64,000 nt of DNA from contig JAZNVH010000010.1 in the NCBI GenBank assembly GCA_045592745.1, positions 92,783 through 156,782 on the forward strand. Direction: 5' to 3'. This document shows, one piece after another, positions 1 through 51,907 of the stretch; within the stretch, counting starts at the first letter, position 1, and each line of letters opens with the position of its first letter. The notes under the pieces are model-generated. The model had not been told where the DNA came from and ran no database searches. It saw only the letters and a program-made list of their open reading frames with translations. The translations under genes and the position numbers were made by a program. The stretch comes from Candidatus Aphodoplasma sp. (GTDB lineage: Bacteria; Bacillota; Clostridia; UBA1381; UMGS1253).

Positions 1-1289
1 TTTTCCTCTATTGCCTTAATGACAACTGCTTCAACGGCAGATGCGTCAAACTTTTTATCAAGACCTTGTTCTTTACAGTAAAGGGCAGGGTCAACGTCGT
101 TTTCAACTACTGCAATTAAGATTTTCTTGCCGGCATTACGGTTAACAGTGCCGTCATTTACCATTTTTATAATACTAAAGAGCTTTTCGGCACTGATTGT
201 TAATTCGTCTATCGTCTTGCCGTCTTTTCTCAAAACGCCAATACAGTCAGTCAAAATCCACGTTGCAGCATCTTTTGCCCCGCATCCCATATTAACAACA
301 TCATCAAGAAGCTTGCTTATCCTGTGGTTTGAAATAAGCATGTCAATTTCTTTTTCGGAAATGCCTGCCAAACGGTAATCCTCAACCTTTTCATCAAGAG
401 CGGCGGGTTTGTTTGCTTTGATTTTTTCAAGCCATTCGTCGTCTATGATTATCGGCATAAGGTTTGCGTCGGGGAAGTAGCGATAATCCGCTTCAGTTTC
501 CTTGTTACGCATAGCAAAGGTTTTTCCGCTGACATCATCAAAACGTCTTGTTTCCTGCACAAGCTCTTCTGTTTCAAATTCCAAAGCATCAATGTGGCGC
601 TGCGCTTCGTAGCGGATTGCACGCTCAATTGCTTCAAATGAGCTCATGTTCTTAATCTCTGTACGTACGCCAAATGTTTCGCTTCCTTCGGGGCGAACAG
701 AAATATTAACGTCGCAGCGCATTGCGCCTTCTTCACATTCTGAAATTCCGGCAGAGCGGAACATTGATTTTAATTTGTTTAAGTAGGTTACAACCTCTTC
801 TGCGCTTCTAAAATCGGGCTGAGTTACAATCTCGATTAGCGGAACGCTGGTACGGTTAAAGTCTACATAAGAATATTTGCCACCATGGACAAGTTTGCCT
901 GCATCCTCTTCCATATGAATCTGCTTAATGCGTATATCACGACTGCCTGCTGATGTTTTAAGTGTTACGCATCCGTTGGTGCAAATAGGATGATTAAGCT
1001 GTGTAATCTGATATGCACACGGAAGGTCAGGATAGTAGTAATTCTTTTTATCAAAGGTTGTGTATCTGTTTATTTCACAGTTAAGCATAAGACCTGCTGT
1101 AACAGCAAGCTCTACAACGCGCTTGTTCATTACAGGCAGCATTCCGGGCATACCGCTGCAGGCAGGGCATACGCAGTCATTAGGCTCGTTAGCGGAGCTG
1201 TGACCGCCACACGAACAGAATATTTTTGATTCGGTACTAAGCTCAACGTGAGTTTCAAGACCGATAACCAATTCGTAATTCATAATCAT
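1..1289 (-). CDS. gatB: Asp-tRNA(Asn)/Glu-tRNA(Gln) amidotransferase subunit B (partial, runs off left edge)
   Basis: Not in the ORF track; translated by hand from ATG at 1289, overlapping the gatA stop (ATGA). It reads MIMNYELVIGLETHVELSTESKIFCSC...CPAC...FDKKNYYYPDL...IHMEEDAG...PLIEIV...DYRYFP. The frame stays open to position 3 (429 codons). Confidence 0.96.
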   Translation of the reverse strand, partial: MIMNYELVIGLETHVELSTESKIFCSCGGHSSANEPNDCVCPACSGMPGMLPVMNKRVVELAVTAGLMLNCEINRYTTFDKKNYYYPDLPCAYQITQLNHPICTNGCVTLKTSAGSRDIRIKQIHMEEDAGKLVHGGKYSYVDFNRTSVPLIEIVTQPDFRSAEEVVTYLNKLKSMFRSAGISECEEGAMRCDVNISVRPEGSETFGVRTEIKNMSSFEAIERAIRYEAQRHIDALEFETEELVQETRRFDDVSGKTFAMRNKETEADYRYFPDANLMPIIIDDEWLEKIKANKPAALDEKVEDYRLAGISEKEIDMLISNHRISKLLDDVVNMGCGAKDAATWILTDCIGVLRKDGKTIDELTISAEKLFSIIKMVNDGTVNRNAGKKILIAVVENDVDPALYCKEQGLDKKFDASAVEAVVIKAIEE

Positions 1290-2464
1290 TCACCCTTCCT
1301 TTCGGCCGCGTCTGCAAAACCAAGAAGCAGAGGCTCGGAAAAATGCTTTCCAATAAGCTGGACACCACCACTAACCATTGCAGGCACGCCAATAAGGTTT
1401 GCCAAAGAGGTGAACACGCTCTCATCAAACACCTTGCCAAAGGCTTCGTGAATATCGTACGCTTCATAAGCTGTTTTACTCATAGCAGGAGTCAAAATAG
1501 CATCGTAATTTTTCATAAGCTCTTCAAATTTTTCTGCTATTACACGGCGTACTTTTAATGATTTATTATAGCATTCTTCGTAACGGTTTTTGGAAAGAAC
1601 ATCAGAGCCATACAAAATCACTGATTTTGTCAAAAAGTTAAAGCCTTCTGTTCTTGAATTTACATATAACTCGTCAATGTCTTTGTATTCTTTGGCGCGA
1701 TGACCAAATTTAACACCGTCATAACGGGAAATATTATTGCACGTTTCTGCTGTCATAAGAATCTGCCATGCCACGTTAACAGCATCAAAAATATCAAATG
1801 AGATTTCTTCTACAACAACACCATTCTCGCGTAGTGCGCCAGCAAAAGCGTTTATGCGTTCTTTTGTCTGCTCATCTGCTTTTTCGACGAGCTCTTTTAC
1901 AATGGCGACCTTTTTGCCCGAAACATTTTCCAAGCTATAGTCATAGCTTTCGTTTCTGAGGCTCGTTCCGTCTTTTTCGTCGTGTCCTGCAATAATCTGC
2001 ATAATCTCTTTAACACCTGATGCATTTTTCGCATATACACCGACTTGCTCACCCGAAGCAGCACACGAAATTACACCATAGCGTGAAACCGTGCCATAGG
2101 TGGGTTTTAAAAAGTCGATGCCAGATAATGCGGCGCTGCGTCTTGTAGCGCCATTCATATCTACGCCAAGAGCGGCTTTTACATCGCCATCTGCAACCGC
2201 CTGTGCGGCTGCGCCTTTTAATGAGCCTTCCTGATTTTCGTAGTATGAAAATTCACCAACAAGGTCAAGACCAAACTCGCCAACATGTGTCTTTCCGGCA
2301 ACTTTATATCCTTTGCTTTCAAGACGTGTTACTGCCTCTGCGCTAAAAAGCGGCTTGAAGCCTTCAAGTATTTTAGAGCCTGCACAGCTTTGAGCGTCTT
2401 TTACTAAAATTGTATCATCAACTGCGATGTTACCATCGCCTAATTTCGTTTTATAATAATTCAT
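1286..2464 (-). CDS. gatA: GatA-like amidase-signature protein, truncated and lacking the catalytic triad
   Basis: Amidase-signature scaffold (LKPTYGTVSRYG, NISRYDGVKFGHR, SLANLIGVPA) between aspS::gatC and gatB. Likely start is ATG 2464 behind GAGGTG (track start GTG 2473). About 392 aa versus about 480 for typical GatA. Confidence 0.9.
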   Translation of the reverse strand: MNYYKTKLGDGNIAVDDTILVKDAQSCAGSKILEGFKPLFSAEAVTRLESKGYKVAGKTHVGEFGLDLVGEFSYYENQEGSLKGAAAQAVADGDVKAALGVDMNGATRRSAALSGIDFLKPTYGTVSRYGVISCAASGEQVGVYAKNASGVKEIMQIIAGHDEKDGTSLRNESYDYSLENVSGKKVAIVKELVEKADEQTKERINAFAGALRENGVVVEEISFDIFDAVNVAWQILMTAETCNNISRYDGVKFGHRAKEYKDIDELYVNSRTEGFNFLTKSVILYGSDVLSKNRYEECYNKSLKVRRVIAEKFEELMKNYDAILTPAMSKTAYEAYDIHEAFGKVFDESVFTSLANLIGVPAMVSGGVQLIGKHFSEPLLLGFADAAERKGE

Positions 2465-2474
2465 CCTGCACACC

Positions 2475-4553
2475 TCACTTTACAAGTCTTGGCACCTGCC
2501 AGCTGTCTTCACTGCGCTCGGGAGCACCTTCTAAGAGGCTCTCACGCGTGAACGGCTGATGGCGGACATCTTCGCGCAGTACATTTGTCATAGGCATAAC
2601 ATGTACCATGGGTTCAACATTTTCTGTATCTATCGTAGAAAGAATTTTTTCTTTTTCGCTCATAGCGGCAAAAATTTTCTGAACCTTATTTTCTTCTTCG
2701 CCTGAAAGGGCGATCTGGTTTAGCTGCTGTGCATTAGAAAATGTCGAGCGCTTGCTCATAGATGATTTACCTGTGTTTGATGGGCCTGATGCACGCTGCG
2801 CGAGTGCGTTTGTATTTCCCAAAAGGTGAACATCTTCAAGCTGTTGATTTGATACAAAGCTTGGCGCACCTAAAAGAAGGTCCTGAGCGTTGCCGTTTAG
2901 AGGGAATGCAATAACGTCTAAAATCTTTTCTTCATCGGTTAACAGCATTACCATTCTGTCGATACCGGGCGCCATACCTGCATGAGGCGGAGCACCGTAT
3001 TGGAATGCTGTATAAAGAGCATTAAAACGCTTTTTAAGCTCTTCCTCTGGATAACCTGCAATTTCAAATGCTTTTTTCATGATGTCTATATCATGGTTAC
3101 GAACAGCGCCCGATGCAAGCTCTATGCCGTTACCAACAAGGTCATACTGATATGCCAGAATTTCGGTAGGGTCTTTTGTAAGAAGAGCATCCATACCGCC
3201 CTGGGGCATAGAAAATGGGTTGTGTGTAAAGATTATTTCGCCTGTATCCTCGTCTTCTTCGTACATCGGGAAGTCTACAACGAAGCAGAACTCGAATGCA
3301 TCTTCGTTAATCAAATCAAGCTGTTCTTTTTTAGCAAGCCATGTGCGTATAAGTCCTGCTTTTTTCTCGGTATCATTCTTTTTATCATCACAGATAAAGA
3401 ACAGTGTTTCGCCTTCTTTTACACCTGTTAATTCAATTATTTCTTCTTTTTGTGCGTCACTTAAGAACTTGGCGATAGGACCTGCAAATATGCCATCTTT
3501 TAAAGTGATATATCCAAGACCGCCAAGACCAACCTCAAGAGATGTTGCATATTTTAAAGAATCCTCAAAGAATTTTTTTGATTTGCCCTGACAGTTTGCC
3601 ACGATTCCGCGCACGGGCTTACCCTTAAAAGCGGGGAAGTCAACGCCAGAAAAGAAATCTGTCAAATCACAGATGATAAGTGGATTTCGAAGGTCAGGCT
3701 TATCAGAGCCGTAATACATCATCGCATCGGCATATGTTATGCGGCGAAACGGCTTTGGTGTAACCTTTTTATCGGAAAATGTTTTAAATGTATCATAGAT
3801 TAAATCTTCGCAAACATCCAAAACTTCTTCTTGCGTAGCAAACGCCATTTCAAAGTCGAGCTGATAAAACTCACCGGGAGAACGATCAGCGCGGGCATCT
3901 TCGTCACGGAAGCACGGAGCAACCTGAAAATATCTGTCAAAGCCCGACACCATCAAAAGCTGTTTAAACTGCTGCGGTGCCTGCGGAAGTGCGTAAAATT
4001 TGCCCGGATGCTTACGGCTTGGTACCAAAAAGTCTCTGGCGCCTTCCGGAGAAGAAGCAGTCAAAATCGGAGTCTGCATATCCAAAAAGCCTTTTTCCTC
4101 CATTTTGTTTCTCAAATGGCGGATAATCTTTGAGCGTTTTACCAAATTATCATGGTTTTTTGGATTACGCAAATCAAGATAGCGGTATTTTAAACGAAGC
4201 TCATCCTTGCTCAGTCTTGAAGTGCGCACATCAAAAGGCAGATTATTAAGACTTTTGCCTAAAATTTCAAGAGTGTCTGCTACAAGTTCTACATTACCTG
4301 TATCAAGCTTGTAGTTTACGGTTTCTTCGTCACGCTTGCTTACGATACCTGTAACAGAAATAACTGTTTCGCGGTTTACATCCTTTACAAGCTTGTCATC
4401 ATGGATGACCACCTGTGTTACGCCTGTGTAATCACGAAGGTCGATAAAAATAACACCACCGTGGTCACGCACAACGTCAACCCAACCGGCAAGTGAAACA
4501 GTTTTGCCGATGTGCTCATCACGTATGTCATTACAATATAGGGTTCTATACAT
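2475..4553 (-). CDS. aspS: Aspartyl-tRNA synthetase (non-discriminating type) fused to a C-terminal GatC-like domain
   Basis: AspRS motifs RDHGGVIFIDLRD, LPQAPQQFKQLLM, CFRDEDARADR.PGEFYQLD, GAPPHAGMAPGIDR. After about residue 585 comes a Ser/Gly/Asn linker, then a GatC-like tail (IDTENVEPMVHV..TNVLREDV...LLEGAPERSEDSWQVPRLVK). Confidence 0.95.
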   Translation of the reverse strand: MYRTLYCNDIRDEHIGKTVSLAGWVDVVRDHGGVIFIDLRDYTGVTQVVIHDDKLVKDVNRETVISVTGIVSKRDEETVNYKLDTGNVELVADTLEILGKSLNNLPFDVRTSRLSKDELRLKYRYLDLRNPKNHDNLVKRSKIIRHLRNKMEEKGFLDMQTPILTASSPEGARDFLVPSRKHPGKFYALPQAPQQFKQLLMVSGFDRYFQVAPCFRDEDARADRSPGEFYQLDFEMAFATQEEVLDVCEDLIYDTFKTFSDKKVTPKPFRRITYADAMMYYGSDKPDLRNPLIICDLTDFFSGVDFPAFKGKPVRGIVANCQGKSKKFFEDSLKYATSLEVGLGGLGYITLKDGIFAGPIAKFLSDAQKEEIIELTGVKEGETLFFICDDKKNDTEKKAGLIRTWLAKKEQLDLINEDAFEFCFVVDFPMYEEDEDTGEIIFTHNPFSMPQGGMDALLTKDPTEILAYQYDLVGNGIELASGAVRNHDIDIMKKAFEIAGYPEEELKKRFNALYTAFQYGAPPHAGMAPGIDRMVMLLTDEEKILDVIAFPLNGNAQDLLLGAPSFVSNQQLEDVHLLGNTNALAQRASGPSNTGKSSMSKRSTFSNAQQLNQIALSGEEENKVQKIFAAMSEKEKILSTIDTENVEPMVHVMPMTNVLREDVRHQPFTRESLLEGAPERSEDSWQVPRLVK

Positions 4554-4584
4554 GATATATTCCTCCTGTAATAGTGTGCTAAAA

Positions 4585-4799
4585 AATAAAAGTCCCGAAA
4601 ATATACAAAAGTATATTTTCGGGACGAGTAAACTAACATTTAACCCGCGGTGCCACCCGCATTGATGCTAAAAGCATCCGCTTTTTATATGAAGCTGTAA
4701 ATAAACGGAGTGTTCCCAAACTTACTACTCATCTCAAATGCGCTTTCAGTCCATGACGCATTCTCCCTTTCAGACTTTCCACAAAAGCCGAGTCTCCGT
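4585..4799 (-). promoter_or_regulatory. T-box riboswitch upstream of aspS::gatC-gatA-gatB, probable Asn (AAC) specifier
   Basis: On the - strand: T-box GCGGGTGGCACCGCG (4660-4646), stem III GATGCT/AGCATC, and terminator GTCCCGAAAATATAC-TTTT-GTATATTTTCGGGAC plus a U-tract. Apical AGGGAG/ACTGAAAG elements and basal stem ACGGAG/CTCCGT are present, with AAC-A at 4714-4711. The UGGC bulge implies a G73 tRNA (Asn/Asp compatible). Confidence 0.88.
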
Positions 4800-4804
4800 A
4801 AGTT

Positions 4805-4833
4805 ATTATAGCAAAAAATGTTTTTATTGTCAA
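4805..4833 (-). promoter_or_regulatory. SigA-type promoter for the T-box/aspS operon
   Basis: Perfect TTGACA-17 nt-TATAAT on the - strand just upstream of the T-box leader. Confidence 0.85.
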
Positions 4834-4900
4834 CATTATTTTGCCTGATTTTTTTGATATTATTAAAGTTGTTTTATTGGGACATTTTTGTATTTTAACC

Positions 4901-15191: not shown

Positions 15192-17822
15192 TTATTTCAA
15201 AGCTGCAATGCTTTCTTCAACCTTTTTAAGCATTTCGGCATATTTTTTGCCCTTAGCGGCCTCTGCTTCTACAACAGCGGCAGGCGCTTTGTCGGTAAAG
15301 CCTTTGTTTGAAAGCTTGCTTTCGACTCTTTTTATCTCACTAATAAGAGTTTGCTTTTCCTTTTCAAGACGCGTCAGCTCTTTTTCTTTGTCAACAAGCT
15401 CTTCCATAGGAAGATATATGCTTGCGCCTTCAACAACGATGCATACACTGCCTTCCGATATGCCGCCGTTGTCTTTTACAACGCTCACGCCCTGAGCGCT
15501 TGCAAGCTTTTCGAAAAATCCGATTCCGCTTGAAAATACGTCTGTAAGCTCTGTTACAATTATAAGACTGCACTTCTTTGAAGGCGGAACATTCATTTCG
15601 CTTCTTGTATTACGGATGCTCTTGATTGCCTCCATAATAAGTGACATATTTTTCTCATCGGCTGCAAAATTAAGCTTTTCATCATATTTTGGCCAGTCGC
15701 TTATCATAATGCTTTCGCCAACGTGTGGCAAATGTTGCCATATTTCTTCAGTGATAAAGGGCATAAACGGATGAAGTAGTTTCATTGTTTCTGACAAAAC
15801 GTATGTGAGTACATACTGAGCAGTTATACGCGACGGATTTTCAGTGTCAAACAGACGCGGTTTTACAAGTTCGATATACCAGTCGCAATAATCGTCCCAT
15901 ATAAAGTCGTAAATCTTTGAAAGTGCAACGCCAAGCTCGAATTTGTCAAGATTGTCGGTAACTTCTTTTACGACGTTATTAAACTTACTTATAATCCACT
16001 TATCTTCGAGTGCAAGCTCGCTCGCATCGGGAAGTTTGTTATCATTGATTTCAAGATTCATCAAAACAAAACGCGATGCGTTCCATATCTTATTTGCAAA
16101 GTTACGGCTTGCCTGTACCTTTTTATCTGAAAAACGCATATCGTTTCCTGGCGCATTACCTGTTATAAGTGTAAAACGAAGTGCGTCTGCACCATATTTT
16201 TCGATGATTTCGAGCGGGTCAATACCGTTTCCAAGCGATTTTGACATTTTGCGTCCCTGCTCATCACGAACAAGACCATGTATAAATACATGCTTAAACG
16301 GCTCACTCTTCATATGCTCTGCGCTTGAGAAAATCATTCTTGCAACCCAGAAGAATATGATATCATATCCCGTTACGAGTACTGATGTGGGGAAGAACTT
16401 TTCAAGCTCGGTTGTCTTATTTGGCCAGCCAAGTGTCGAAAACGGCCATAGTGCTGATGAAAACCATGTATCAAGAACGTCGGGGTCCTGCTTTACGCTG
16501 CCCCCGCACTTGGGACATACATCTACGGGTGTTTTTGAAACAACTGTTTCGCCGCACGCGTCGCAGTAATATGCGGGTATTCTGTGTCCCCACCAAAGCT
16601 GACGCGAAATGCACCAGTCGTGCACATTTTCCATCCAGTTTAAATATGTCTTTGTAAATCTTTCGGGAACAAACTGTGTTTTTCCTTCTGTTACGATTTT
16701 TATAGCCTCTTTTGCAAGCGGCTCCATTTTAACAAACCACTGCTTTGATGTGATAGGCTCAACTGTTGTGCCGCAACGATAGCACTGACCCACATTGTGT
16801 GAATGTGGCTCGATTTTTACAAGAAAACCACCTTCTTCAAGGTCAGCTACAATCTGTTTTCTTGCTTCGTAACGGTTAAGTCCTTCATATTTTCCACCAA
16901 AGGAGTTTATAGTTGCATCGTCGTTCATAACCTTTATTTGCTCAAGGTTATGACGAAGACCAACCTCAAAGTCATTCGGGTCATGCGCAGGTGTAATTTT
17001 AACTGCGCCTGTACCAAAATCTTTGTCAACGTATTCGTCGGCAATAATCGGTATCTCACGTCCAACAAGCGGAAGCACAAGCATCTTTCCAACAAGGTGA
17101 GTATATCTTTCGTCATCAGGATGAACTGCAACAGCAGTATCTCCCAAAAGTGTTTCAGGACGTGTTGTTGCGATTGTAAGATATTCGTCAGAATCTTTTA
17201 CATAATATCTTATGTGCCAGAAATTTCCTTCGTGCTCTTCATACTCAACCTCAGCGTCAGAAAGCGCCGTAGCACAGCTTGGACACCAGTTTATAATTCT
17301 GCTGCCCTGATATATAAGTCCTTTTTTATAAAGGTTTACAAATACCTCAAGAACGGCATCGGAGCATCCTTCGTCCATAGTAAAGCGCTCGCGGTCCCAG
17401 TCGCATGAACAACCGATTTTTTTAAGCTGGCTGATAATTCTGTCGCCGTATTGTTTTTTCCAGTCCCATACACGCTCCAAAAACGCCTCACGTCCAAGGT
17501 CGTAGCGGGTTTTGCCTTCTTCTTTTCGAAGAACTTCTTCAACCTTTATCTGTGTTGCGATACCTGCGTGGTCAGTGCCGGGAATCCAAAGAGCCTCAAA
17601 GCCTGACATACGCTTATAACGAATAAGGATATCCTGAAGTGTTTCGTCAAGAGCATGTCCCATGTGAAGCTGACCGGTAACGTTCGGGGGAGGAATTACA
17701 ATTGTGAAAGGCTCTTTGTCGCTCTTTTCATCTGCATGAAAAAAGCCATTTTCCGTCCAGAATTTGTATAATCTGTCCTCAAACTGGGATGGTTCATAAG
17801 TTTTAGCAATATTGTCATTCAT
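15192..17822 (-). CDS. valS: Valine--tRNA ligase
   Basis: [38 protein letters not shown] and KMSKS motifs; C-terminal coiled coil. Confidence 0.98.
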
Positions 17823-30021: not shown

Positions 30022-30299
30022 ATAAACGCAGTGATGCGGAATAGTAGGCAAAATACTTTCGCCAAAAGAGAGATGCCGGTTGGTGCAAGGCATTGGGAAA
30101 GATTTGCCGAACTCACCGCGGAGCGGCTGCCGTGAAATGTTTGGAGAGTAGGGGCAGACGGGAACTCCCGTAACAGAGTAAAGATGTGTTGGCATCTTGA
30201 GGGCATCCTTTGTGGATGAAGAAGAGTGGTACCGCGGAAGCAAAAAAGGATTTTACGCTTTCGTCTCTTTGAATAAACGAAGAGACGAAAGCTTTTTTT
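30022..30299 (+). promoter_or_regulatory. Leucine T-box riboswitch (specifier CUC)
   Basis: Stem I with AGUA/GAA loop E, AGAGAG bulge, GGTGCAAG loop and GAA-CTC-A at 30109-30115. T-box AGAGTGGTACCGCG at 30223-30236. Terminator GCTTTCGTCTCT/AGAGACGAAAGC plus T7 (30257-30299). The UGGU bulge matches the A73 discriminator of tRNA-Leu. Confidence 0.95.
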
Positions 30300-30353
30300 G
30301 TAAATTGAAAAAGCTTTGGGAAATGAGCTTTGAAAGGGAAGGGGTTTTATCCA

Positions 30354-31742
30354 ATGAGAAAAATCAACGTATCGGACATTACATTAAAAAAACTGGCACA
30401 AACAAGAGAGGTTGCACTGCTATTTCGTGAAAAGACAGCGATTGCTGCGTGCGCAGACGCTCTCGGCGTAGATGCTATTGAACTTGCGGCAATTAAAAAT
30501 TTGCGTGAAGATACTATCGTTTATAAAACGATTGCAAAAAATATTCAAAAAAGTATTGTTGCAATTCCGGTTGGTTTTTCTTTTGATGACGTGGCAAATG
30601 CGTGGGAATGTGTAAAGGAAGCCGCAAAACCGAGACTGCAGGTAGAAGTGCCCACATCAACAGTTCAGATGGAGTATATGTATCATCTTAAAGCAGACAA
30701 AATGATAGCAAAAATCGCCGAGCTTGTTACAGAAGCGAAAAAGCTTTGTGATGATGTAGAGCTTGTTGCAACTGATGCTACACGTGCTGATGAAGAGTTT
30801 TTGATTGAAGCTGCAAAGACAGCCGAACAAAATGGCGCAAAGATTATTACAATCTGTGACGATGCGGGTGTGGCTTTGCCTGAGGAAATTGCAGAGCTTG
30901 TTTCTAAAGTAAAGCAGGCTGTAAATGCAGATGTTTATGTGCAGGTATCAGACAGTATCGGTATGGCAGTATCGGCGGCGGTATCTGCAATCGGAGCGGG
31001 CGCAGATGGACTAAAATGTGCAATGGCAGGAGAAGATTCGCTTTCTATGGGCGCTTTGGCAAAAATGGTTTCAGCACGCGGAGATGCGATTGGCGCTTCG
31101 GTAGCTTTGGAGAATACAAAAATTCACGCAAGTATCGAGGATATGCTTTCTAAAATCAATCATGCAGGATATGAAAGTGCAGATGACGTTAGCGAGAAAA
31201 AGAAGATTTTGCTTGATGAGGATAGTACACTTTCTGATGTGGCATATGCGGCAAATGTGCTTGGTTATGATTTGTCCGACGAGGATAATGGAAAGGTTTA
31301 TAAGGCACTTATGCAGGTTTGTGAGAAGAAAGGCTCTGTCGGAGTAAAAGAATTTGAAGCACTTATTGCAAGCAGTGCAATGCAGGCACCGTCAACATAT
31401 CATTTTGAAAGCTATTCGACAAGTTGTGGTAATTTAACAAGTGCAATGTCACAGGTAACGCTAAGATGCGGTGATGAAATTCTTTGCGGTGTAAGCACGG
31501 GCGACGGTCCGATTGATTCGGTATTTCGTGCAATAGAGCAAAGCATAGGATATCATTATGAGCTTGACGATTTCCAGATTCAGTCGGTAACAGATGGCAA
31601 GGAAGCGCTTGGCTCTGCCTTGGTAAAGCTTCGCGTAGGCGGCAAGCTCTATTCAGGTAACGGCAGCTCTACTGATATTGTTGCAGCAAGTATAAGAGCA
31701 TACATAAATGCGCTTAACAAGATTGTGTTTGAGGAGGCGTAA
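30354..31742 (+). CDS. LeuA (2-isopropylmalate synthase)-like pseudoenzyme with intact C-terminal regulatory domain
   Basis: Colinear with LeuA (AAKPRLQV, LCDDVEL..TDATR, GDGPIDSVF.AI, SGNGSSTDIVAASIRAYINALNK), but LRDGEQ reads LKKLAQ and HCHND reads QVSDS. Start ATG 30354 behind GAAGGGG. Confidence 0.88.
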   Translation: MRKINVSDITLKKLAQTREVALLFREKTAIAACADALGVDAIELAAIKNLREDTIVYKTIAKNIQKSIVAIPVGFSFDDVANAWECVKEAAKPRLQVEVPTSTVQMEYMYHLKADKMIAKIAELVTEAKKLCDDVELVATDATRADEEFLIEAAKTAEQNGAKIITICDDAGVALPEEIAELVSKVKQAVNADVYVQVSDSIGMAVSAAVSAIGAGADGLKCAMAGEDSLSMGALAKMVSARGDAIGASVALENTKIHASIEDMLSKINHAGYESADDVSEKKKILLDEDSTLSDVAYAANVLGYDLSDEDNGKVYKALMQVCEKKGSVGVKEFEALIASSAMQAPSTYHFESYSTSCGNLTSAMSQVTLRCGDEILCGVSTGDGPIDSVFRAIEQSIGYHYELDDFQIQSVTDGKEALGSALVKLRVGGKLYSGNGSSTDIVAASIRAYINALNKIVFEEA

Positions 31743-31744
31743 GG

Positions 31745-34204
31745 ATGAAACTGACCTTTTCTACAAAAAACGTAAACAGGGCATCGTTTTTTGATACCTG
31801 CCGTTATGCATACGATTACGGATATGCAGGTTTTGAAATTTATGATGCAATTAAAGAGAGAAAACAACACTATGACAGCATTCTTCGAAGTGAACGCACA
31901 GCAGACTCAAAAAGAAAGCTTTTTAACCGTGGACTTAACGTTTCTGCATTGGTGTATCCGTATCCGATAGAAAGTAGCGAAGCGACACCTGAATCTGTTG
32001 TAAAATATGTTGATATGGCGACAAATGCGGGAATTGAGCGCGTTATTTTGCGTATCGAGGAAAAGACTTCAAACGATGTGCTTTATGAAAAACTCAGTGA
32101 GGCTGTCAAAAAAGCCGGAAAGGCTGATGTTCAGATATTGTTTGAAACATCGGGCTATCTTGCAAAAACTGAGAATGTAATTGATATTATAAACTTTTTT
32201 TCATCTGCGGCAATAGGTGTTTCGTGGAATACGCGTGAAACGTATTTTAAAGCGGGCGAGAGTGCAGACACAACCATTAAAACACTTGGCGCGTATATAA
32301 AATATGTGCGTCTTGGTGATATGAAAGATGGCAAAAGCGTCTTAATCGGTGAGGGAGAGCTTCCTGTTACAAATGTTATTAATGCGCTTTCTTCACTTAA
32401 TTTTGACGGATATATTTGCGTGGCGTGGAATGAAGAAATTCAGGATGCTGACATTGTACTTACGCATTTCACAAATTATATTGCTGGACTTTCTCGAAAG
32501 AAAAAAGAAAAAGACGGTGCATATTATAATCGCTCAAAGACGGGTACATTTGTATGGAAAAAATACGATGTTATTGATGCAACTTTTTCCGATGTGCTTG
32601 ATACGATGGTTGAAAAGTACCCTGACCAGTATGCGTTTAAATATACAACGCTTGATTACACAAGAACGTATTCGCAGTTTCGCCGTGATGTAGATGAATG
32701 TGCGGCGGCACTTATATCGCTTGGCGTAAAGGCGGGCGACCAGGTTGCTATATGGGCGACGAATGTGCCGGCGTGGTTTATTACCTTTTGGGCAACGACA
32801 AAAATCGGCGCAGTACTCGTTACAGTTAATACCGCATATAAAATTCATGAGATTGAATATCTTTTAAAGCAGTCGGATACGCATACGCTTGTTATGATTG
32901 AGGATTGTAAGGATATTAATTATATAGAAATTATCGAGGAGCTTTGTCCCGAACTTAAAAGCATAAATCCAGGAGAGCCGCTTTATTCAAAAAATCTTCC
33001 GTTCCTGCGAAATGTAGTTACAGTCGGTTTTTCAATGGATGGATGTCTTACATGGGAACAGATGCTTGAGCGTTCTGCACTTGTGCCTCAGCAGGAGGTG
33101 CGTCGCAGAGCCTCGCTTGTAAAGCCCGACGATGTTTGTAATATGCAATATACATCGGGCACTACGGGATTTCCAAAGGGCGTAATGCTTACGCACAGAA
33201 ACATTGTCAACAACGGAAAAACCATTGGTGACAGAATGGATTTGTCAACAGCAGACCGTATGATGATTCAGGTGCCGATGTTCCATTGTTTTGGTATGGT
33301 GCTTTCCATGACATCAATGATGACACATGGCGGTACACTTTGTCCAATGCCATATTTTTCGCCAAAGTCATCACTTGCATGTGTAAACGATGAACACATA
33401 ACCTGCTTTAATGGTGTACCGACTATGTTTATAGCAATGTTTAACCATGCCGATTTTGCAAAGACGGACTTTTCGTATATGCGTACGGGAATTATGGCGG
33501 GAGCAAACTGTCCGGCAGATTTGATGCGTCGTGCGGCAGATGAGATGAATATGCGTGAGATTATTTCTGTATATGGTCAGACCGAGGCTTCGCCCGGATG
33601 CACAATGGGTGAGGTAAACGAAGATCTTGACCACAGAGTTGAAACTGTTGGAAGTGCATTTCCCGGTGTTGAATGTAAGATTATTGACCCTGAAACAGGC
33701 GAGGAACTACCCGATGGTGAGAGCGGCGAATTTGTTGCGCGTGGCTTTAACATTATGAAGGGCTATTATAAAATGCCTGAAGCAACTGCACAGACAATTG
33801 ACGCAGACGGATGGCTTCATTCGGGAGATATTTGCTGTAGAACAAGCGATGGATATTATAAGGTTACAGGACGTCTTAAAGATATGATTATTCGTGGAGG
33901 CGAAAATCTTTACCCGCGTGAGATAGAGGAGTTTTATCTTACACACCCGAAGGTGCGCGACGTGCAGGTAGTAGGTGTGCCTGACGAAAAGTACGGCGAA
34001 GAGTGCTGTGCGTGGATTATTCTTCATAAAGGTGAAGAGTCTGATGAAAACGAGATGCGCGAGTATGGTAATGCTTCTATTGCACGCCACAAAGTGCCAA
34101 AGTACTTTGTATTTGTTAAAGAATTTCCAATGAACGCTGCAGGCAAAATTCTAAAATATAAGATGCGTGATGAGTCAGTGGAGATTTTAGGATTAAAAAA
34201 GTAA
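31745..34204 (+). CDS. Fusion: degenerate xylose-isomerase-like TIM barrel plus AMP-forming acyl-CoA synthetase
   Basis: The N-terminal ~255 aa follow the sugar-phosphate isomerase/epimerase pattern (YAGFEI, LIGEGELP, FDGYI). The C-terminal part has intact ANL motifs YTSGTTGFPKG, YGQTE, WLHSGD, GRLKDMIIRGGEN and AGKILK. Confidence 0.9.
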   Translation: MKLTFSTKNVNRASFFDTCRYAYDYGYAGFEIYDAIKERKQHYDSILRSERTADSKRKLFNRGLNVSALVYPYPIESSEATPESVVKYVDMATNAGIERVILRIEEKTSNDVLYEKLSEAVKKAGKADVQILFETSGYLAKTENVIDIINFFSSAAIGVSWNTRETYFKAGESADTTIKTLGAYIKYVRLGDMKDGKSVLIGEGELPVTNVINALSSLNFDGYICVAWNEEIQDADIVLTHFTNYIAGLSRKKKEKDGAYYNRSKTGTFVWKKYDVIDATFSDVLDTMVEKYPDQYAFKYTTLDYTRTYSQFRRDVDECAAALISLGVKAGDQVAIWATNVPAWFITFWATTKIGAVLVTVNTAYKIHEIEYLLKQSDTHTLVMIEDCKDINYIEIIEELCPELKSINPGEPLYSKNLPFLRNVVTVGFSMDGCLTWEQMLERSALVPQQEVRRRASLVKPDDVCNMQYTSGTTGFPKGVMLTHRNIVNNGKTIGDRMDLSTADRMMIQVPMFHCFGMVLSMTSMMTHGGTLCPMPYFSPKSSLACVNDEHITCFNGVPTMFIAMFNHADFAKTDFSYMRTGIMAGANCPADLMRRAADEMNMREIISVYGQTEASPGCTMGEVNEDLDHRVETVGSAFPGVECKIIDPETGEELPDGESGEFVARGFNIMKGYYKMPEATAQTIDADGWLHSGDICCRTSDGYYKVTGRLKDMIIRGGENLYPREIEEFYLTHPKVRDVQVVGVPDEKYGEECCAWIILHKGEESDENEMREYGNASIARHKVPKYFVFVKEFPMNAAGKILKYKMRDESVEILGLKK

Positions 34205-37029: not shown

Positions 37030-40000
37030 CTATCCGAGAAGGTCTTCAAGTGACATCTGCGAGCTTGCCTGCATTCCGTTAAAGCAACCACTTTGTTCGA
37101 GCGAATCGAGTGCAGTTTTACTGATTTTTGTTCTCCTGTGAAGGTCTTCTATCGAGTGGAAAATGCCCTTTTCACGCTCTTCGCATATTGTAGTAGCTTG
37201 TGCAATGCTTACGTTTGGCAGACTTGAGAGCGGGGGAAGAATTTTATCGCCTTTGGGCAAAAAGTTCTTTGAGTCTGACTCATACAAATCCACCGGCAAA
37301 AAGTCAAATCCGCGTGCATACATTTCGCGGCAAAGCTCAAGTGTAGTGTATAAATCCTTGTCTTTTTGCGTTGGGAGAGGAATGTTTTTTATATTCTTCA
37401 TTGCACTAAGCACTGTTTCCATTCCATGACACATAATGCTTGCATCAAATGCGCCAAGTGCGCGTATCGTAAAGTATGCACAGTAATATGCGATAGGGTA
37501 GTGCACTTTGCAGTAAGCGATACGAAAAGCCATCATTACATATGCAACCGCATGTGCTTTTGGGAACATATACTTTATTTTGTTACACGAATCGATATAC
37601 CACTGCGGAATGTCGTGTGCTTTCATCTCAATTTCGTCGTCACTGCTAAGGCCTTTTCCCTTACGAACCTTTTCCATTATTGTAAACGCAAGTTTTGGCT
37701 CAAGTCCCATGTGTATAAGATAAATCATTATATCATCACGGGTACATATAGCCTCTGAAAGAACAATCTCTCCGCTTTGAATATAGTCCTGAGCATTGTT
37801 TGTCCAAACGTCCGTACCGTGTGAAAGTCCCGATATACGAAGAAGCTCTGAAAACTTTGTTGGTTTTGTATCGACGAGCATTTGACGAACAAAGTTTGTA
37901 CCAAATTCGGGCACGCCAAACGTACCGACATCGCTTCCGATATCGTTAGGGGTAACGCCAAGTGCTTCTGTATTTAAAAACAGCGAAAGTGTAGGCTTGT
38001 CATCGAGTGGAATTTTCTTTGCGTCAATTCCGGTCAAATCCTCAAGCATTCTTATAACCGTCGGGTCATCGTGTCCGAGTATATCAAGCTTTAAAAGGTT
38101 ATCGTGTATAGAATGATAGTCAAAATGTGTAGTTATAATTGTACTGTCGGCATCGTCGGCAGGGTGCTGTACGGGACAGAACTGATGTATATCATTTGCC
38201 TTTGGCAAAATGATTACACCGCCCGGATGCTGACCCGTTGTGCGTTTTACGCCGGTACAGCCGAGCGAAATGCGTTTGATTTCAGCATTATGAGCAACAA
38301 TTGAGCGTTCATCAAAATATTTTTTTGCATATCCAAAGGCTGTTTTTTCAGCGATTGTGCCGATTGTTCCTGCACGAAAGACATGTCCTTCGCCAAACAG
38401 CTCTTCTGTATACTTATGCGCGACGCTCTGGTATTCACCCGAGAAGTTAAGGTCGATATCAGGCTCTTTATCGCCTGCAAAACCGAGAAATGTTTCGAAT
38501 GGAATGTCATGTCCGTCTTTTGCATAATTTTCGCCGCAAATTGGACATATCTTGTCTGGAAGGTCACAACCAGATAAACCCGAGCCGTCCGTGATAAACT
38601 CACTGTGTTTACATTTTTTGCAAATATAATGCGCCGGAAGAGCGTTAACCTCTGTAATTCCCGATAAAAATGCAACAAAAGATGAGCCAACAGAACCACG
38701 CGAGCCAACAAGATATCCGTCAGATAGGGACTTGCTCACAAGCTGCTGAGCAATTTTATACATAACTGAAAATCCGTATGTGGTAATTGATTTAAGCTCT
38801 TTATCCATGCGCTGTTTTACAATGTCAGGCAGCGGCTCACCATATATTTCCTTTGCCTTTTCGTTTGACATATTTATTATATCCTCCTGAGCGCCTTCAA
38901 TACTCGGCGGATACGTTCCTGAGCGCACGGGTGCAAGCTCCTCGGTCATCTCACTTATAATATTTGGATTTGCTACTACAACCTCGTATGCAAGCTCGGG
39001 CTCAAGATAGTCAAATTCATCAAGCATTTCCTGGGTTGTGCGAAGGTATAACGGCGCCTGAAAATCGGCATCATCAAAGCCTTTTCCAGCCATTAATACA
39101 CGGCGAAAAACCTCGTCCTCAGGATCCAAAAAGTGAACGTCACCCGTAGCAACGGTGAGCTTGCCATGTTTTTTTCCAAGAGCGATAATTTTTTTATTAA
39201 TATCCTGTAAATCTTCTTTTGAGCCTACCTGACCATTTCTTAGCATAAACTCATTGTTTCCAAGAGGCTGAATTTCAAAATAGTCATAAAATGCGGCAAT
39301 ATTGTCGATTTCCTGCGCACTGCGGCCTGAAAAAATTGCCTGATAAAGCTCGCCTGACTCACACGCGGAACCAATAATTAAGCCTTCGCGGTATTTGTTT
39401 ATGAGGCTTTTTGGCATACGCGGTGTGCGATAAAAATAGTCAAGATGCGATGCAGAAATAAGCCTGTAAAGATTTTCAAGTCCGACAGGATTTTTTGCAA
39501 GTATGATTATATGATGTGACGGTATGCCGCGCACATCAATTTTATTTCCAAAACACGTGTTTAGCTCTCGTACGTCACTTACGCTCATTTTTGAGAGCGC
39601 TTCGAGCATTTTTTTAAATATATTAGCCGTTGCAAGGGCATCATCGACAGCTCTGTGATGATTGTCAAGAGTTACTTTTAAATGCTTTGTAAGATTGTTT
39701 AATTTGTGGTTTTTAAGCTCGGGATAAAGCTTTCTCGCAAGCGAAAGTGTGTCAACATAGCACTCTGAAAAGTTTTTGCCCATTCTTTCAAGACTCGCAC
39801 GTATAAAACCTGTGTCAAAATTTGCATTATGAGCAACAAGAACACAGCCTTCGCAAAAGCGCATAAAGTCGGTTACGGCTTTTTCTTCTTTCGGCGCACC
39901 CTTTACCATTGAATCATTGATTCCAGTAAGCTCGGTGATTTTTTGCGGTATTGGCACTGGAGGCTCTACAAAGGTGGAAAAAGAGTCTACAATTTCGCCT

Positions 40001-41049
40001 TCTTTAATTTTTACTGCGCCGATTTCTATAATAAAGTTTGTTTCACAAGAAAGCCCGGTTGTTTCAAGGTCAAAGACAACAAATGTATCATTTAACTTGT
40101 GTGATTTTTCGTTGTATGTTATCAGTGAGCGGTCATCTACGACATAGCCTTCCACGCCATAAATCACTTTTATGCCATTTGATTTTGCAGCTTTTGCTGC
40201 TTCGGGGAATGCCTGAACAACGCCATGGTCAGTTATGGCGATTGCTTTATGTCCCCAAGAAGCCGCGCGTGCTATAAGGTCCGTCGCACTCGACACTCCG
40301 TCCATAGTTGACATTTGCGTATGCATATGAAGCTCGACGCGCTTTTCTTTTGCATCATCAGTTTTCTTTGGAGGAGCTTCAAGCTCATTTATATCATAAG
40401 CGGTGATAACAGTATCACGCGAATATTTATCGTATGCAACATCACCATATACTGATACCCAAGTGCCTTTTTTAAGACGCTTTTCAACCTTTTCTTTTAA
40501 TACGCCGTCGCGCGCTTGACTAAAAGAGCCGTCGGCATTTTTTCTTGGCTGAAGATTGCAAAAAAGCTTTACTGTGCGCGAATCCTTTTTATCTGTGATA
40601 TCAAAAGTCACAATCCACGAATGGTCTTTTCTTTCGAGCCATTCTACACAAAAAATTTCACCGCTTGTGCGTACACGTCCTGCCTCGGGTGTTACTTCGT
40701 CAAGAGATAGAAGTTTTCCCTTGATTTTTTTGCCACAGATAACCTCACTTGGTTTATTTGTGCCAAGCTGTGACTCGAATTGTTTTATAAGAGCCTCCTC
40801 CTGAGCACGCTGACGAAGCATTGCTTCGGTAATTACATTTGCCTGTGGAAGCTGTATATGTATATCATCAAGTTTATATTTAGTTATAAATGTCTCTTTA
40901 AGCATTGCAAGCTGACTCTCGGTAAGCATTGCCGTATCAGAAAGCTCAATTGACATTGTGCGCTGCTTTTTATTTACGCTGATTTTTGAAAGCTCGATTT
41001 CGGCGAGTGTATCGTCGCAACCGGCAATCAAATCCTTGATTTTTGTCAT
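37030..41049 (-). CDS. polC: DNA polymerase III alpha subunit, PolC type
   Basis: PHP motif ELHMHTQMS, DEDDh exonuclease FDLETTG/AHNA.FD, GSRGSVGSS, PDIDLNFSG and KLDILGHDDPT. Confidence 0.98.
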   Translation of the reverse strand: MTKIKDLIAGCDDTLAEIELSKISVNKKQRTMSIELSDTAMLTESQLAMLKETFITKYKLDDIHIQLPQANVITEAMLRQRAQEEALIKQFESQLGTNKPSEVICGKKIKGKLLSLDEVTPEAGRVRTSGEIFCVEWLERKDHSWIVTFDITDKKDSRTVKLFCNLQPRKNADGSFSQARDGVLKEKVEKRLKKGTWVSVYGDVAYDKYSRDTVITAYDINELEAPPKKTDDAKEKRVELHMHTQMSTMDGVSSATDLIARAASWGHKAIAITDHGVVQAFPEAAKAAKSNGIKVIYGVEGYVVDDRSLITYNEKSHKLNDTFVVFDLETTGLSCETNFIIEIGAVKIKEGEIVDSFSTFVEPPVPIPQKITELTGINDSMVKGAPKEEKAVTDFMRFCEGCVLVAHNANFDTGFIRASLERMGKNFSECYVDTLSLARKLYPELKNHKLNNLTKHLKVTLDNHHRAVDDALATANIFKKMLEALSKMSVSDVRELNTCFGNKIDVRGIPSHHIIILAKNPVGLENLYRLISASHLDYFYRTPRMPKSLINKYREGLIIGSACESGELYQAIFSGRSAQEIDNIAAFYDYFEIQPLGNNEFMLRNGQVGSKEDLQDINKKIIALGKKHGKLTVATGDVHFLDPEDEVFRRVLMAGKGFDDADFQAPLYLRTTQEMLDEFDYLEPELAYEVVVANPNIISEMTEELAPVRSGTYPPSIEGAQEDIINMSNEKAKEIYGEPLPDIVKQRMDKELKSITTYGFSVMYKIAQQLVSKSLSDGYLVGSRGSVGSSFVAFLSGITEVNALPAHYICKKCKHSEFITDGSGLSGCDLPDKICPICGENYAKDGHDIPFETFLGFAGDKEPDIDLNFSGEYQSVAHKYTEELFGEGHVFRAGTIGTIAEKTAFGYAKKYFDERSIVAHNAEIKRISLGCTGVKRTTGQHPGGVIILPKANDIHQFCPVQHPADDADSTIITTHFDYHSIHDNLLKLDILGHDDPTVIRMLEDLTGIDAKKIPLDDKPTLSLFLNTEALGVTPNDIGSDVGTFGVPEFGTNFVRQMLVDTKPTKFSELLRISGLSHGTDVWTNNAQDYIQSGEIVLSEAICTRDDIMIYLIHMGLEPKLAFTIMEKVRKGKGLSSDDEIEMKAHDIPQWYIDSCNKIKYMFPKAHAVAYVMMAFRIAYCKVHYPIAYYCAYFTIRALGAFDASIMCHGMETVLSAMKNIKNIPLPTQKDKDLYTTLELCREMYARGFDFLPVDLYESDSKNFLPKGDKILPPLSSLPNVSIAQATTICEEREKGIFHSIEDLHRRTKISKTALDSLEQSGCFNGMQASSQMSLEDLLG

Positions 41050-49576: not shown

Positions 49577-51907
49577 TTACACGCCAATAGTATTTTTAAC
49601 GTTTTCTTCGCTAAATGATGCATCTGTAAATTCATTCATAAATGCCTCAAATGAGCCTGATTCATTTTTATCGGAGCAGCGAACAACCCATGCGATTGTA
49701 TCACCATAAGCACGATAATCGCAGTCCATTACTGCGTCATTATTGTTAAGCTCGAGTGTTTTTGAACACCATACGCCCATATAAGAGTTGTTAACGCGGG
49801 CAAACATAAAGCCATCACGCTTTATTTCTTCATCCATTGCAAATGAAGGCCAGTAAATATGGGTAAGCTTTGTCGGATGCTCGTCGGGGATATTATAGTA
49901 GCAGTAAAGCGTATTGTCATCTTGCTTTAGTGCAGGAAATACGCCATTTCCATACCAATAATCAGGACGTATACCGCCAAAGTCTTTTTCTGTGCCCGGA
50001 TGATTTACGAATGTATAACAGCGGTTTGAAAGAGCCGCATACCAAAGATGCTGCTGATAGCCATATTTGCCGGGAACAAACAAAGACGTTCCGTGAAACC
50101 ACTCGTTCATGATCTTTGTCTTATAATATTCTGTATCTGTATATTTTTCTTCAGGGAGTGGCGTGCGTCTTGGAGAAGCAACCGATGTAAGCATATAGTT
50201 TTTCGTTTTTTTTGTAGTAATGCTTGCACGTCCCGAATCAAATGTAACATTGGCATTATTGCGCATAAGTTCCGTCAAATCATCAGGCATTTTATATGAG
50301 CTGTAATAGAAGTATATAAGCCAACCACTGTATGCTTGGGCGCAGTTTTCGTCGAGCAGATACAAAAGACTTTGCAGTCCTGACTCGTATGGAGTGAGCG
50401 AGCTTCTGTATATTCTTCCCATAGGAGCCATATGTATACCGTCAAAGCATTGAAGTGCTGTTTCACGAAGAATTCGGTCAAGAGCGTTTTTTGCGCGGGA
50501 CTTGATAACTTCGTTTGTTGAAAAATCATAAAGGACAAGAAGCGGAGCAGTTGTAACAAGCAGATATCCGCCTGCCAAAAATTCTTCAAAGCCCTCGTGC
50601 TCAATTACATCAAACCACTCGTTTATACGGGCTATGCCTTTTTTATACTGGTCTATGCCGCGTTTGCCTGAATGACGGAAAAACTCCTCGGGCCATATAC
50701 TTCCTGCGAGCATCTGGCAAACAAAGAATGTGAGCGCGTGATTTTCGCTCCAAAAGCACATTGCATCTGCACCTTCCTCGTCCATCCAGTATCTAAAGTC
50801 AAGAGCGGCATCGTGTATCTTCTTTTTGTATTCATCACTTATTGGTAAAAGCTTGTATATGTAAAGAAGACTCATAAGTGCAAAGTCAGAACAATCTCTA
50901 CAAGTGCGTACAAAGTCAAGAGGCATATCAAAATGCGCATAATCTTTTTCGCAGATAGACTGTTTTATGTAGTAACTGGCAAGAAATTTGAAAGTATCTA
51001 AATAAGAGTGAGCTTTTGTGTCAGCTATATTTTTCAATATTGAATCTGCTTTATCTTTCTTTGATTCAAATTTATTAAACACAAGCTTTTCATTCTGAAG
51101 AATATCAAATCGGCGCATAAACTTTTGTGCGCATACTTCAAACGATACTTGGATATTTCTTTCTCTGTTTATATCATAGGTGTTGCCTTCGCTCCATACG
51201 CTCTCATTTTCTCCAAGCTTAACTGTTACAGGTAATGGCGGTTGTGTTTTTGAAATAAGCTTTGCATCATCACAACGCAAATCACAAAGCCAGTTTTCAG
51301 CGTCTTTAAGCTTTGCAAGAGTATCTTCCTTGACAGGAAGAGTTACACATATACCGTCTGTATCAAAAAGCTGAAGTGAGAACATATTTCTGGTGTCGCG
51401 TACACCAAAGTTCTGGAGGCATACAAATATATCATTAACGCCTTTCTTTAGGTCTAATGTTATGTCAAGATAGTTTATCGGTTTATATACGGGGTCTTTA
51501 ATGTTTGCACAGTGGACACCGTTTAGCCACATATCAACAGTACAGTATGACCAGATTCGAGCGCGAACAGTTTTTGCTTTGTCACTTACAAGCTGAGTTA
51601 GTGCATGAATATTAACACTCGTAAGAGTGAAGTAGAAGGTTGAGAAATCTATGTATGTATTACGGTTTTTTGCATAAAATTTCCACACCGCACCAAGTGA
51701 GCTTTCTTCGCCGAGAGTGCCCCATGCGGGTACTTTTTCCATAGGCTTTGCGAAAATTTTTCGCATATCAGCCTCGAATTTTAGCTGATTTTTATCTGTA
51801 TGGGGTGCTACAAAAGGCTCAGTAACAGCCTCAGTTGTAAGATAGTTTAGAACATATCCCTCTTTTGAAAGTGAAAAACATACTTTTGAATCAGTCAACA
51901 TAAACAC
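49577..51907 (-). CDS. 776-aa cytoplasmic protein of unknown function, possibly carbohydrate lyase-like
   Basis: Long intact ORF with no signal peptide. Beta-rich N-terminus, helical core with FRYWMDE/FWSENH and a beta-rich C-terminus (YGYQQHLW). The fold assignment is inference. Confidence 0.6.
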   Translation of the reverse strand: MFMLTDSKVCFSLSKEGYVLNYLTTEAVTEPFVAPHTDKNQLKFEADMRKIFAKPMEKVPAWGTLGEESSLGAVWKFYAKNRNTYIDFSTFYFTLTSVNIHALTQLVSDKAKTVRARIWSYCTVDMWLNGVHCANIKDPVYKPINYLDITLDLKKGVNDIFVCLQNFGVRDTRNMFSLQLFDTDGICVTLPVKEDTLAKLKDAENWLCDLRCDDAKLISKTQPPLPVTVKLGENESVWSEGNTYDINRERNIQVSFEVCAQKFMRRFDILQNEKLVFNKFESKKDKADSILKNIADTKAHSYLDTFKFLASYYIKQSICEKDYAHFDMPLDFVRTCRDCSDFALMSLLYIYKLLPISDEYKKKIHDAALDFRYWMDEEGADAMCFWSENHALTFFVCQMLAGSIWPEEFFRHSGKRGIDQYKKGIARINEWFDVIEHEGFEEFLAGGYLLVTTAPLLVLYDFSTNEVIKSRAKNALDRILRETALQCFDGIHMAPMGRIYRSSLTPYESGLQSLLYLLDENCAQAYSGWLIYFYYSSYKMPDDLTELMRNNANVTFDSGRASITTKKTKNYMLTSVASPRRTPLPEEKYTDTEYYKTKIMNEWFHGTSLFVPGKYGYQQHLWYAALSNRCYTFVNHPGTEKDFGGIRPDYWYGNGVFPALKQDDNTLYCYYNIPDEHPTKLTHIYWPSFAMDEEIKRDGFMFARVNNSYMGVWCSKTLELNNNDAVMDCDYRAYGDTIAWVVRCSDKNESGSFEAFMNEFTDASFSEENVKNTIGV

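Follow-up and report, generated by a model that had tools for sequence, protein, structure and literature searches.

An aspartyl-tRNA synthetase carrying GatC at its C-terminus in gut Clostridia: a probable tethered Asn-transamidosome under tRNA-Asn control

The Asn-transamidosomes of Thermus thermophilus, Helicobacter pylori and Pseudomonas aeruginosa (PDB IDs: 3KFU; 4WJ3) bring together an aspartyl-tRNA synthetase (AspRS) of the non-discriminating type, GatC, GatA, GatB and tRNA-Asn, presumably to retain Asp-tRNA-Asn, in non-covalent assemblies described as dynamic and held largely by the tRNA (PMC3367201). Here we describe a locus from a Candidatus Aphodoplasma sp. that has the same partners and the same presumed purpose, though in this case the link between AspRS and GatC is a peptide bond, independent of tRNA. 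The locus lies on the reverse strand of a 64,000-nucleotide stretch (assembly GCA_045592745.1, contig JAZNVH010000010.1, positions 92,783 to 156,782), which we call the window and to which all coordinates refer, and it consists of an aspS::gatC fusion, a gatA-like gene that we call gatA′, and gatB, preceded by a T-box leader with an asparagine specifier.

A clostridial relative of this arrangement is found in Clostridium acetobutylicum, for which an aspS-gatCAB operon controlled by a tRNA-Asn T-box (NT-box) is reported (Saad et al. 2012 JBC; 2013 PNAS), in an organism with a duplicated gatCAB and three aspS genes. As in the window, AspRS and the amidotransferase stand under a T-box that senses tRNA-Asn. 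However, the C. acetobutylicum operon reportedly encodes four separate proteins, and its GatA is not known to be defective, whereas in the window aspS and gatC are one gene; the window locus also differs in having a GatA′ without an active site and a minimal specifier loop (A on one side, AACA on the other).

Fusions that involve these components have been seen in other settings. In Mycobacterium smegmatis, GatC-GatA fusion mutants arise by loss of a stop codon that joins GatC to its neighbour (PMC7541841), as in the window. Those mutants came from a laboratory screen, join the C-terminus of GatC to GatA, raise mistranslation and are deleterious, whereas the window lineage attaches AspRS to the N-terminus of GatC, and selection has fixed this fusion across many species. 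The GlnRS of Deinococcus radiodurans is likewise an aminoacyl-tRNA synthetase with a C-terminal piece of amidotransferase machinery, in this case a YqeY/GatB-like domain, though that domain serves the direct pathway by binding tRNA and is not a subunit that recruits an amidotransferase (PMC1865053). The same order as in the window, AspRS followed by a C-terminal GatC, is found in the NCBIfam model NF009460 (PRK12820, ‘bifunctional aspartyl-tRNA synthetase/aspartyl/glutamyl-tRNA amidotransferase subunit C’), whose 723-position profile aligns to residues 5–665 of the window fusion. The score of 454.3 bits is far below the equivalog cut-off of 1379 and no better than that of the AspRS of an unfused relative (450 bits for genome L007, described below), so the window fusion is not an equivalog member and belongs to another lineage, in which the fusion probably arose independently. 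The literature that we searched contained no relevant paper on a natural AspRS–GatC fusion, on the name PRK12820 or on an inactive GatA; the architecture is already catalogued as NF009460.

The fusion is a single uninterrupted open reading frame (ORF) of 692 residues (2475..4553, reverse strand), preceded by the Shine-Dalgarno sequence AGGAGG at 4567..4562. Residues 1–579 (2817..4553) form the AspRS moiety, recognised by both Pfam and NCBIfam, with an oligonucleotide-binding (OB) anticodon-binding domain, a class II core and a GAD insertion (tRNA_anti-codon at residues 19–98, tRNA-synt_2 at 117–553, GAD at 325–393). The match to the aspS model NF001750 extends over residues 1–577 and reaches 740 bits, where 443 would suffice, and the equivalog score (NF001750/TIGR00459) together with the three domains identifies a bacterial-type AspRS. 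An Ala/Ser/Gly-rich linker for which no secondary structure is predicted follows (residues 580–598; 2760..2816), and then a full-length GatC domain (residues 599–692, with the stop codon TGA at 2477..2475; 2475..2759). GatC is matched by PF02686 at residues 616–686 with 45.2 bits (cut-off 23) and by TIGR00135 at residues 604–691 with 53.1 bits (cut-off 47.1), the latter covering profile positions 5–92 of 93; taken by itself, the tail of 94 residues obtains 58.4 bits against the same model. An earlier note on this DNA, made from the letters alone, had proposed that AspRS carries a full-length GatC at its C-terminus, had predicted tRNA-synt_2 plus PF02686 from a Pfam scan and had seen no separate gatC ahead of gatA, and all of this is borne out, with the gatA-like and gatB genes directly downstream of the fusion. 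The public annotation of the protein is a plain ‘aspartate--tRNA ligase’.

The fusion is not confined to one assembly. We scanned genomes, one per species, by alignment of this type of GatC; at least 545 genomes matched and the best 80 were examined, and in all 80 of these GatC is in frame with the C-terminus of AspRS, within stop-to-stop frames of 692–773 codons where the contig permits. These 80 are metagenome-assembled genomes (MAGs) from the guts of goat, sheep, deer, buffalo and other animals, labelled Acutalibacteraceae, Oscillospiraceae, Ca. Fimenecus, Congzhengia and Monoglobaceae. Independent metagenomes, assembled at NCBI, ENA, JGI and Logan, contributed over 120 protein clusters to a search with the fusion; their members have 689–693 residues, 85–100% identity and the same four Pfam domains throughout. 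The possibility of an artefact at the junction, raised in the earlier note, finds its answer in these 80 in-frame junctions and in a separately assembled contig from Logan (run X1; length 1318 nt) that spans 2300–3000 with five substitutions and no insertion or deletion, and which leaves the fusion ORF intact with a single Ser-to-Cys as its sole protein change. Frame breaks do occur upstream, in the AspRS body, in four of the 80 genomes (L009, L022, L046 and L064), with the junction still in frame; L009, the closest relative of the window, has a MAG contig coverage of about 2, and the breaks are probably sequencing errors in low-coverage MAGs rather than signs of pseudogenes. When a library of representatives clustered at 50% was searched with the GatC tail, no full-length fusion was found in it, because ordinary AspRS stand as the cluster representatives, and the search returned free 93-residue GatC relatives and fragments of fusions. 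The fusion is fixed by selection in many species of a large clade of gut Clostridia.

The operon combines four functions and runs from the Asn T-box leader through aspS::gatC and gatA′ (1286..2464, reverse strand; 392 residues; PF01425) to gatB (1..1289, reverse strand; the first 429 codons lie inside the window, where the gene runs off the edge), and the gene order is identical in every related locus. The Shine-Dalgarno sequence of gatA′ (GAGG) overlaps the stop codon of the fusion, leaving a gap of 10 nt, and the stop codon of gatA′ overlaps the start of gatB (ATGA); these overlaps are signals of tight coupling. For gatA′ a GTG start, giving a 395-residue ORF, was set aside in favour of the ATG at 2464, which has a Shine-Dalgarno sequence and matches the 392-residue genes of the relatives. 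GatB is intact and a normal GatB: the full-length orthologue in the related genome L001 (472 residues) scores 564.6 bits against the NF004012 cut-off of 338, and the 429 residues in the window align throughout.

GatA′ is a GatA-like pseudo-glutaminase. It keeps the amidase fold (190 bits to PF01425, with GatA chains as its best PDB relatives) but scores 273.5 bits against the GatA equivalog TIGR00132, below the cut-off of 481.1, and at 392 residues it is shorter than the approximately 470–485 expected, lacking some 55–60 N-terminal residues and nine more ahead of the signature motif. In GatA, catalysis depends on a Ser-cisSer-Lys triad (PMC2330236) and glutamine is bound by Tyr309, Arg358 and Asp425 (bioRxiv 10.1101/733030). 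Numbered by alignment to Staphylococcus aureus GatA, the catalytic Lys79 is Asp16 in the window protein (Asp in 77 of 78 sequences), the GGSSGG motif that holds the catalytic cis-Ser154 reads GSLKGA, and the nucleophile Ser178 is Ala106 (Ala in 38, Ser in 31 and Thr in 7 of the 78). At the glutamine-binding positions, Tyr309 is replaced by Trp in all 78 sequences, Arg358 by Val in 76 and Asp425 by Ser in 74. These replacements are incompatible with GatA′ acting as any serine amidase of the known type. Its defective state is common to 77 species, in which the protein has 390–395 residues, 109 of them invariant, and a conserved VDxNGxxRR motif. GatA′ is under purifying selection, with a ratio of nonsynonymous to synonymous rates (dN/dS) of about 0.1 and a proportion of nonsynonymous differences (pN) of 0.11–0.23; for the GatC domain and GatA′ taken together pN is 0.10–0.23, against a saturated synonymous proportion (pS) of 0.63–0.8. 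In the NCBI annotation it is a ‘hypothetical protein’. Among GatA homologues that accompany GatB and GatC but do not serve as glutaminase, the closest precedent is Tse8, a GatA-like toxin of the P. aeruginosa type VI secretion system, which has the amidase signature, lacks Tyr309, Arg358 and Asp425 as GatA′ does, and is thought to occupy the position of GatA with GatB and GatC (bioRxiv 10.1101/733030). Tse8, however, keeps the catalytic triad and poisons foreign cells, whereas GatA′ has lost the triad and is a resident partner encoded in the operon.

The leader upstream of the fusion (4582..4799, reverse strand) is identified as a T-box by its match to RF00230, by its motif and by covariation. 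It lies behind a sigma-70 promoter (4805..4833, reverse strand; TTGACA, a 17-nt spacer and TATAAT, with an extended −10 TG), which matches 12 of 12 hexamer positions and is the best such site in the region, and whose TATAAT is kept in most of the 66 related leaders. The Rfam match (4842..4617; 47.1 bits, E = 3.3e-9) is below the gathering score of 93, and its alignment of the 5′ part of the leader was rejected since it overlaps the promoter. The whole leader can be aligned across 66 species. Of 70 related leaders, 66 contain the T-box core GGGUGGCACCGCG (4658..4646 in the window), and an intrinsic terminator of 15 pairs followed by a U-run lies at 4625..4592, so that the T-box sequence with its UGGN bulge and a competing terminator and antiterminator all stand upstream of an aminoacyl-tRNA synthetase gene. 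Stem I (4799..4705) was delineated by RNAalifold over 32 leaders as four helices with 25 pairs, in which 98.7% of the cells are paired and 12 of the 25 pairs change on both sides; none of 500 shuffles reached the observed values, and slid controls fell to 20–50% pairing.

Between the base of Stem I and the next helix is a minimal internal loop with A on the 5′ side and AAC followed by A on the 3′ side (by G in a few species). The triplet AAC (4714..4712, with the purine A at 4711) is invariant in the related leaders, and we take it as the specifier because, followed by a purine, it abuts the 3′ strand of the lower helix. AAC is an asparagine codon, and a GAAC context of the specifier is reportedly common to C. 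acetobutylicum and the window. A GAC in the distal loop of Stem I was considered as an alternative specifier and rejected, being in a terminal loop, followed by U and replaced by GGC in two species. Stem I has no K-turn base, since the conserved sequence starts at the helix under the specifier. As read here the leader would sense tRNA-Asn, which fits the synthesis of Asn-tRNA and nothing else obvious. A second, canonical T-box leader lies elsewhere in the window (30022–30271, forward strand; 131.5 bits), with specifier CUC (Leu), and precedes a LeuA-like gene (30330–31742; HMGL-like plus LeuA_dimer).

The nearest relatives of the locus allow its history to be sketched. Free-standing GatC relatives of 93 residues share 66% and 55% identity with the tail and align with it end to end from Met599. 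An unfused sister, L007 (GCA_024684435.1), carries one free GatC in the order aspS, a 201-nt spacer, gatC, a 393-residue amidase and gatB; its AspRS ends in QQLLEANISIRE, its aspS has the same T-box leader with specifier AAC-G, and the spacer (L007 5800–6000) holds a hairpin terminator and then an AT-rich, promoter-like stretch, so that aspS with its Asn T-box and gatC-gatA′-gatB look like separate transcription units. From such a layout the fusion is most simply derived by deletion of the aspS stop codon and most of the roughly 200-nt spacer with its terminator, an event that would also have put gatC-gatA′-gatB under the control of the T-box. A more distant lineage (L008 215–985) again has a fused AspRS-GatC, with 43% identity in GatC and a linker, YGSVVTKAAYREHTDDSSNTAF, of different length and unrelated in sequence to that of the window, followed by a GatA′ that also lacks the triad (AIED, DVNGAPRR). 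Comparison of three genes places the window nearer to unfused L007 than to fused L008 each time. Because the more distant lineage is fused through an unrelated linker while the closer one is unfused, these relationships, in three taxa only, suggest either that fusion happened twice independently or that fusion and fission each happened once, and since both L007 and L008 have the defect in GatA′, that defect predates the fusion.

Taken together, the locus most likely encodes a covalently tethered Asn-transamidosome under tRNA-Asn control that probably uses free ammonia, a reading in which we have good though not complete confidence. Uncharged tRNA-Asn would pair with the AAC specifier and stabilise the antiterminator, so that the operon is read through. 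The first product would then present a bacterial-type AspRS, a flexible tether of about 19–22 residues and a complete GatC. GatC is needed for the folding of GatA and for assembly of the GatA–GatB complex (PMC2330236), and for this reason each AspRS protomer would be expected to carry its own GatA′/GatB module, in a permanently tethered particle of fixed 1:1 stoichiometry. Within it the tethered GatB would phosphorylate and amidate Asp-tRNA-Asn ahead of any encounter with EF-Tu. AspRS is a dimer, and the particle may therefore be written (AspRS-GatC)2(GatA′)2(GatB)2. The coupling of mischarging to correction that the earlier note proposed is the natural reading of a fusion with gatA-like and gatB genes next to it, and may well be right in outline; its canonical form, correction with glutamine, cannot be assumed for a GatA-like protein without the triad. 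The amide nitrogen would most probably come from free ammonia, because GatA′ lacks both the glutaminase triad and the glutamine-binding residues, and this is the weakest step of the mechanism. GatCAB enzymes accept ammonium in vitro, and the host guts of these organisms are rich in ammonia, which is plentiful in gut and rumen alike. The sequences themselves show the fused architecture and how widely it is kept, the leader with its specifier, and a GatA without its active site, whereas complex formation, channelling and the source of ammonia are steps that we infer, as is the charging of tRNA-Asn. A wider statement, that a large clade of Clostridia from ruminant and other animal guts makes its Asn-tRNA-Asn by a tethered, glutamine-independent and ammonia-dependent GatCAB, with GatA′ a pseudoenzyme kept as scaffold or ammonia port and AspRS-GatC as organiser, we advance only tentatively.

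Several points limit this reading or bear on it. That the AspRS charges tRNA-Asn is a prediction from sequence. The earlier note had taken the His of the RDHGG motif (His31; codon at 4463..4461, reverse strand) as the hallmark of a non-discriminating AspRS, and this His is indeed invariant among 56 homologues. His31 and Gly83 of the anticodon domain were reportedly established as such a hallmark in P. aeruginosa (Bernard et al. 2006), and only one residue of this putative specificity pair agrees: His31 matches, whereas the equivalent of Gly83 is Glu or variable (KRDxETVN). A non-discriminating AspRS is always accompanied by an amidotransferase (PMC6523644), and here GatC is part of the AspRS polypeptide, with gatA′ and gatB next in the operon; stronger evidence than His31 for a role with tRNA-Asn is the T-box leader with its AAC specifier. 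An AlphaFold2 model of the fusion built with 56 close homologues is too poor to show any geometry, with a mean predicted local distance difference test score (pLDDT) of 56, and the linker, which appears in it as coil of low pLDDT, may be cleaved after translation. Since its GatA is dead, the amidotransferase may have little activity, may depend on a partner from another locus or may be otherwise employed. No second aspS/asnS-like gene, gatA, gatB or gatC was found by tblastn in the 64-kb window, nor were such paralogues found in 815 kb of flanks from 88 loci, a sample of about 10 kb per genome that says nothing about the remaining genome.

Other explanations of the locus can be set against the tethered transamidosome. 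Because the window derives from a MAG, and because frames are broken elsewhere in the gene in four of 80 relatives, one might suppose that sequencing or assembly had lost a stop codon or introduced a frameshift between aspS and gatC; but all 80 species genomes and, across separate studies, over 120 protein clusters have the junction in frame, and the independently assembled contig agrees, which leaves this a vanishingly small chance. A different proposal accepts the fused gene and regards it as a mere vehicle for translation, from which a free 10-kDa GatC is obtained, either because translation also starts internally at Met599 or because a protease cuts the linker, with the ordinary behaviour of an aspS-gatCAB operon. 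In its favour, the window has an ATG at the exact ancestral start of gatC (2759..2757), with a weak AGGT ahead of it, both placed as in the earlier note, and the flexible linker evolves faster than any other segment (pN 0.2–0.5, compared with 0.04–0.09 in AspRS and 0.10–0.18 in GatC). Yet Met599 is present in only four of 79 sequences, those of the window and three relatives, the position being mostly Gln, Ser or Ala elsewhere and Val or Leu in at most five more, and the coding strand has no promoter-like site ahead of it. The system thus does not conserve internal initiation, and the suggestion in the earlier note that the ATG might yield free GatC is not supported; Met599 is best read as a relic of the ancestral gatC start, since the free 93-residue relatives begin exactly there. 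The linker itself, though dominated by Ala (24%), Ser (20%) and Gly (17%), holds a spacing of 19–22 residues from DVHLLG to KRSTF throughout the 79 sequences, and such a length with conserved flanks would be needless in a mere spacer, so that release of free GatC as the purpose of the fusion is distinctly improbable.

The remaining alternatives concern what the amidotransferase does. GatA′ might be a scaffold only, supplied in trans with glutamine-derived ammonia by a canonical GatA or another glutaminase, or the whole operon might be an auxiliary or regulatory paralogue beside a complete gatCAB, much as C. acetobutylicum reportedly has redundant gatCAB sets and three aspS genes; inspection of only some 10 kb around the operon in each genome leaves room for such a second set. 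Against this, the window and the flanks contain none of the paralogues, and GatA′ occupies the slot of GatA, shows strong conservation and has its translation coupled to that of gatB, and we regard the proposal as unlikely, though worth keeping in view. It is also conceivable that the GatC-like tail is an appendage of AspRS, serving tRNA binding or stability outside any amidotransferase complex, and that GatA′ and GatB have drifted to another function. A new activity could be signalled by the pocket of GatA′, which is at once remodelled and conserved (Lys79 replaced by Asp, Tyr309 by Trp, Arg358 by Val and Asp425 by Ser, together with the VDxNGxxRR motif). However, the full length of the tail still matches the GatC equivalog above its cut-off, GatB is well above its own, and the T-box senses tRNA-Asn, as fits the synthesis of Asn-tRNA, and we give this explanation a slim chance.

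The remainder of the window holds several further features. Directly 3′ of the leuA-like gene is an ORF of 819 residues (31745–34204, forward strand) with an unusual pairing of an N-terminal xylose-isomerase-like TIM barrel (AP_endonuc_2) and a full AMP-binding (adenylate-forming) enzyme, and a 776-residue ORF (49577–51907, reverse strand) has no Pfam match at E <= 1e-5. The genes valS (15192–17822, reverse strand), which has no T-box upstream at the Rfam gathering threshold, and the PolC-type DNA polymerase III alpha subunit (37030–41049, reverse strand) are consistent with a Bacillota chromosome.

The channelling of Asp-tRNA-Asn has so far been argued from transient, tRNA-dependent complexes, whereas the lineage of the window hard-wires the synthetase to the amidotransferase. 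The fusion, which probably arose more than once, offers a stable particle for structural work, and the unfused sister operon is a natural control for what tethering buys. An inactive GatA would contradict the textbook account, in which GatCAB must take its nitrogen from glutamine, and would tie tRNA-dependent synthesis of asparagine to the ammonia-rich gut. The current names of these genes hide the pathway, and metabolic reconstructions of these abundant gut MAGs consequently miss it. If the proposal is true, this would be the first amidotransferase of its family known to have dispensed with its glutaminase, and would amount to an experiment of nature on the reason for having transamidosomes.

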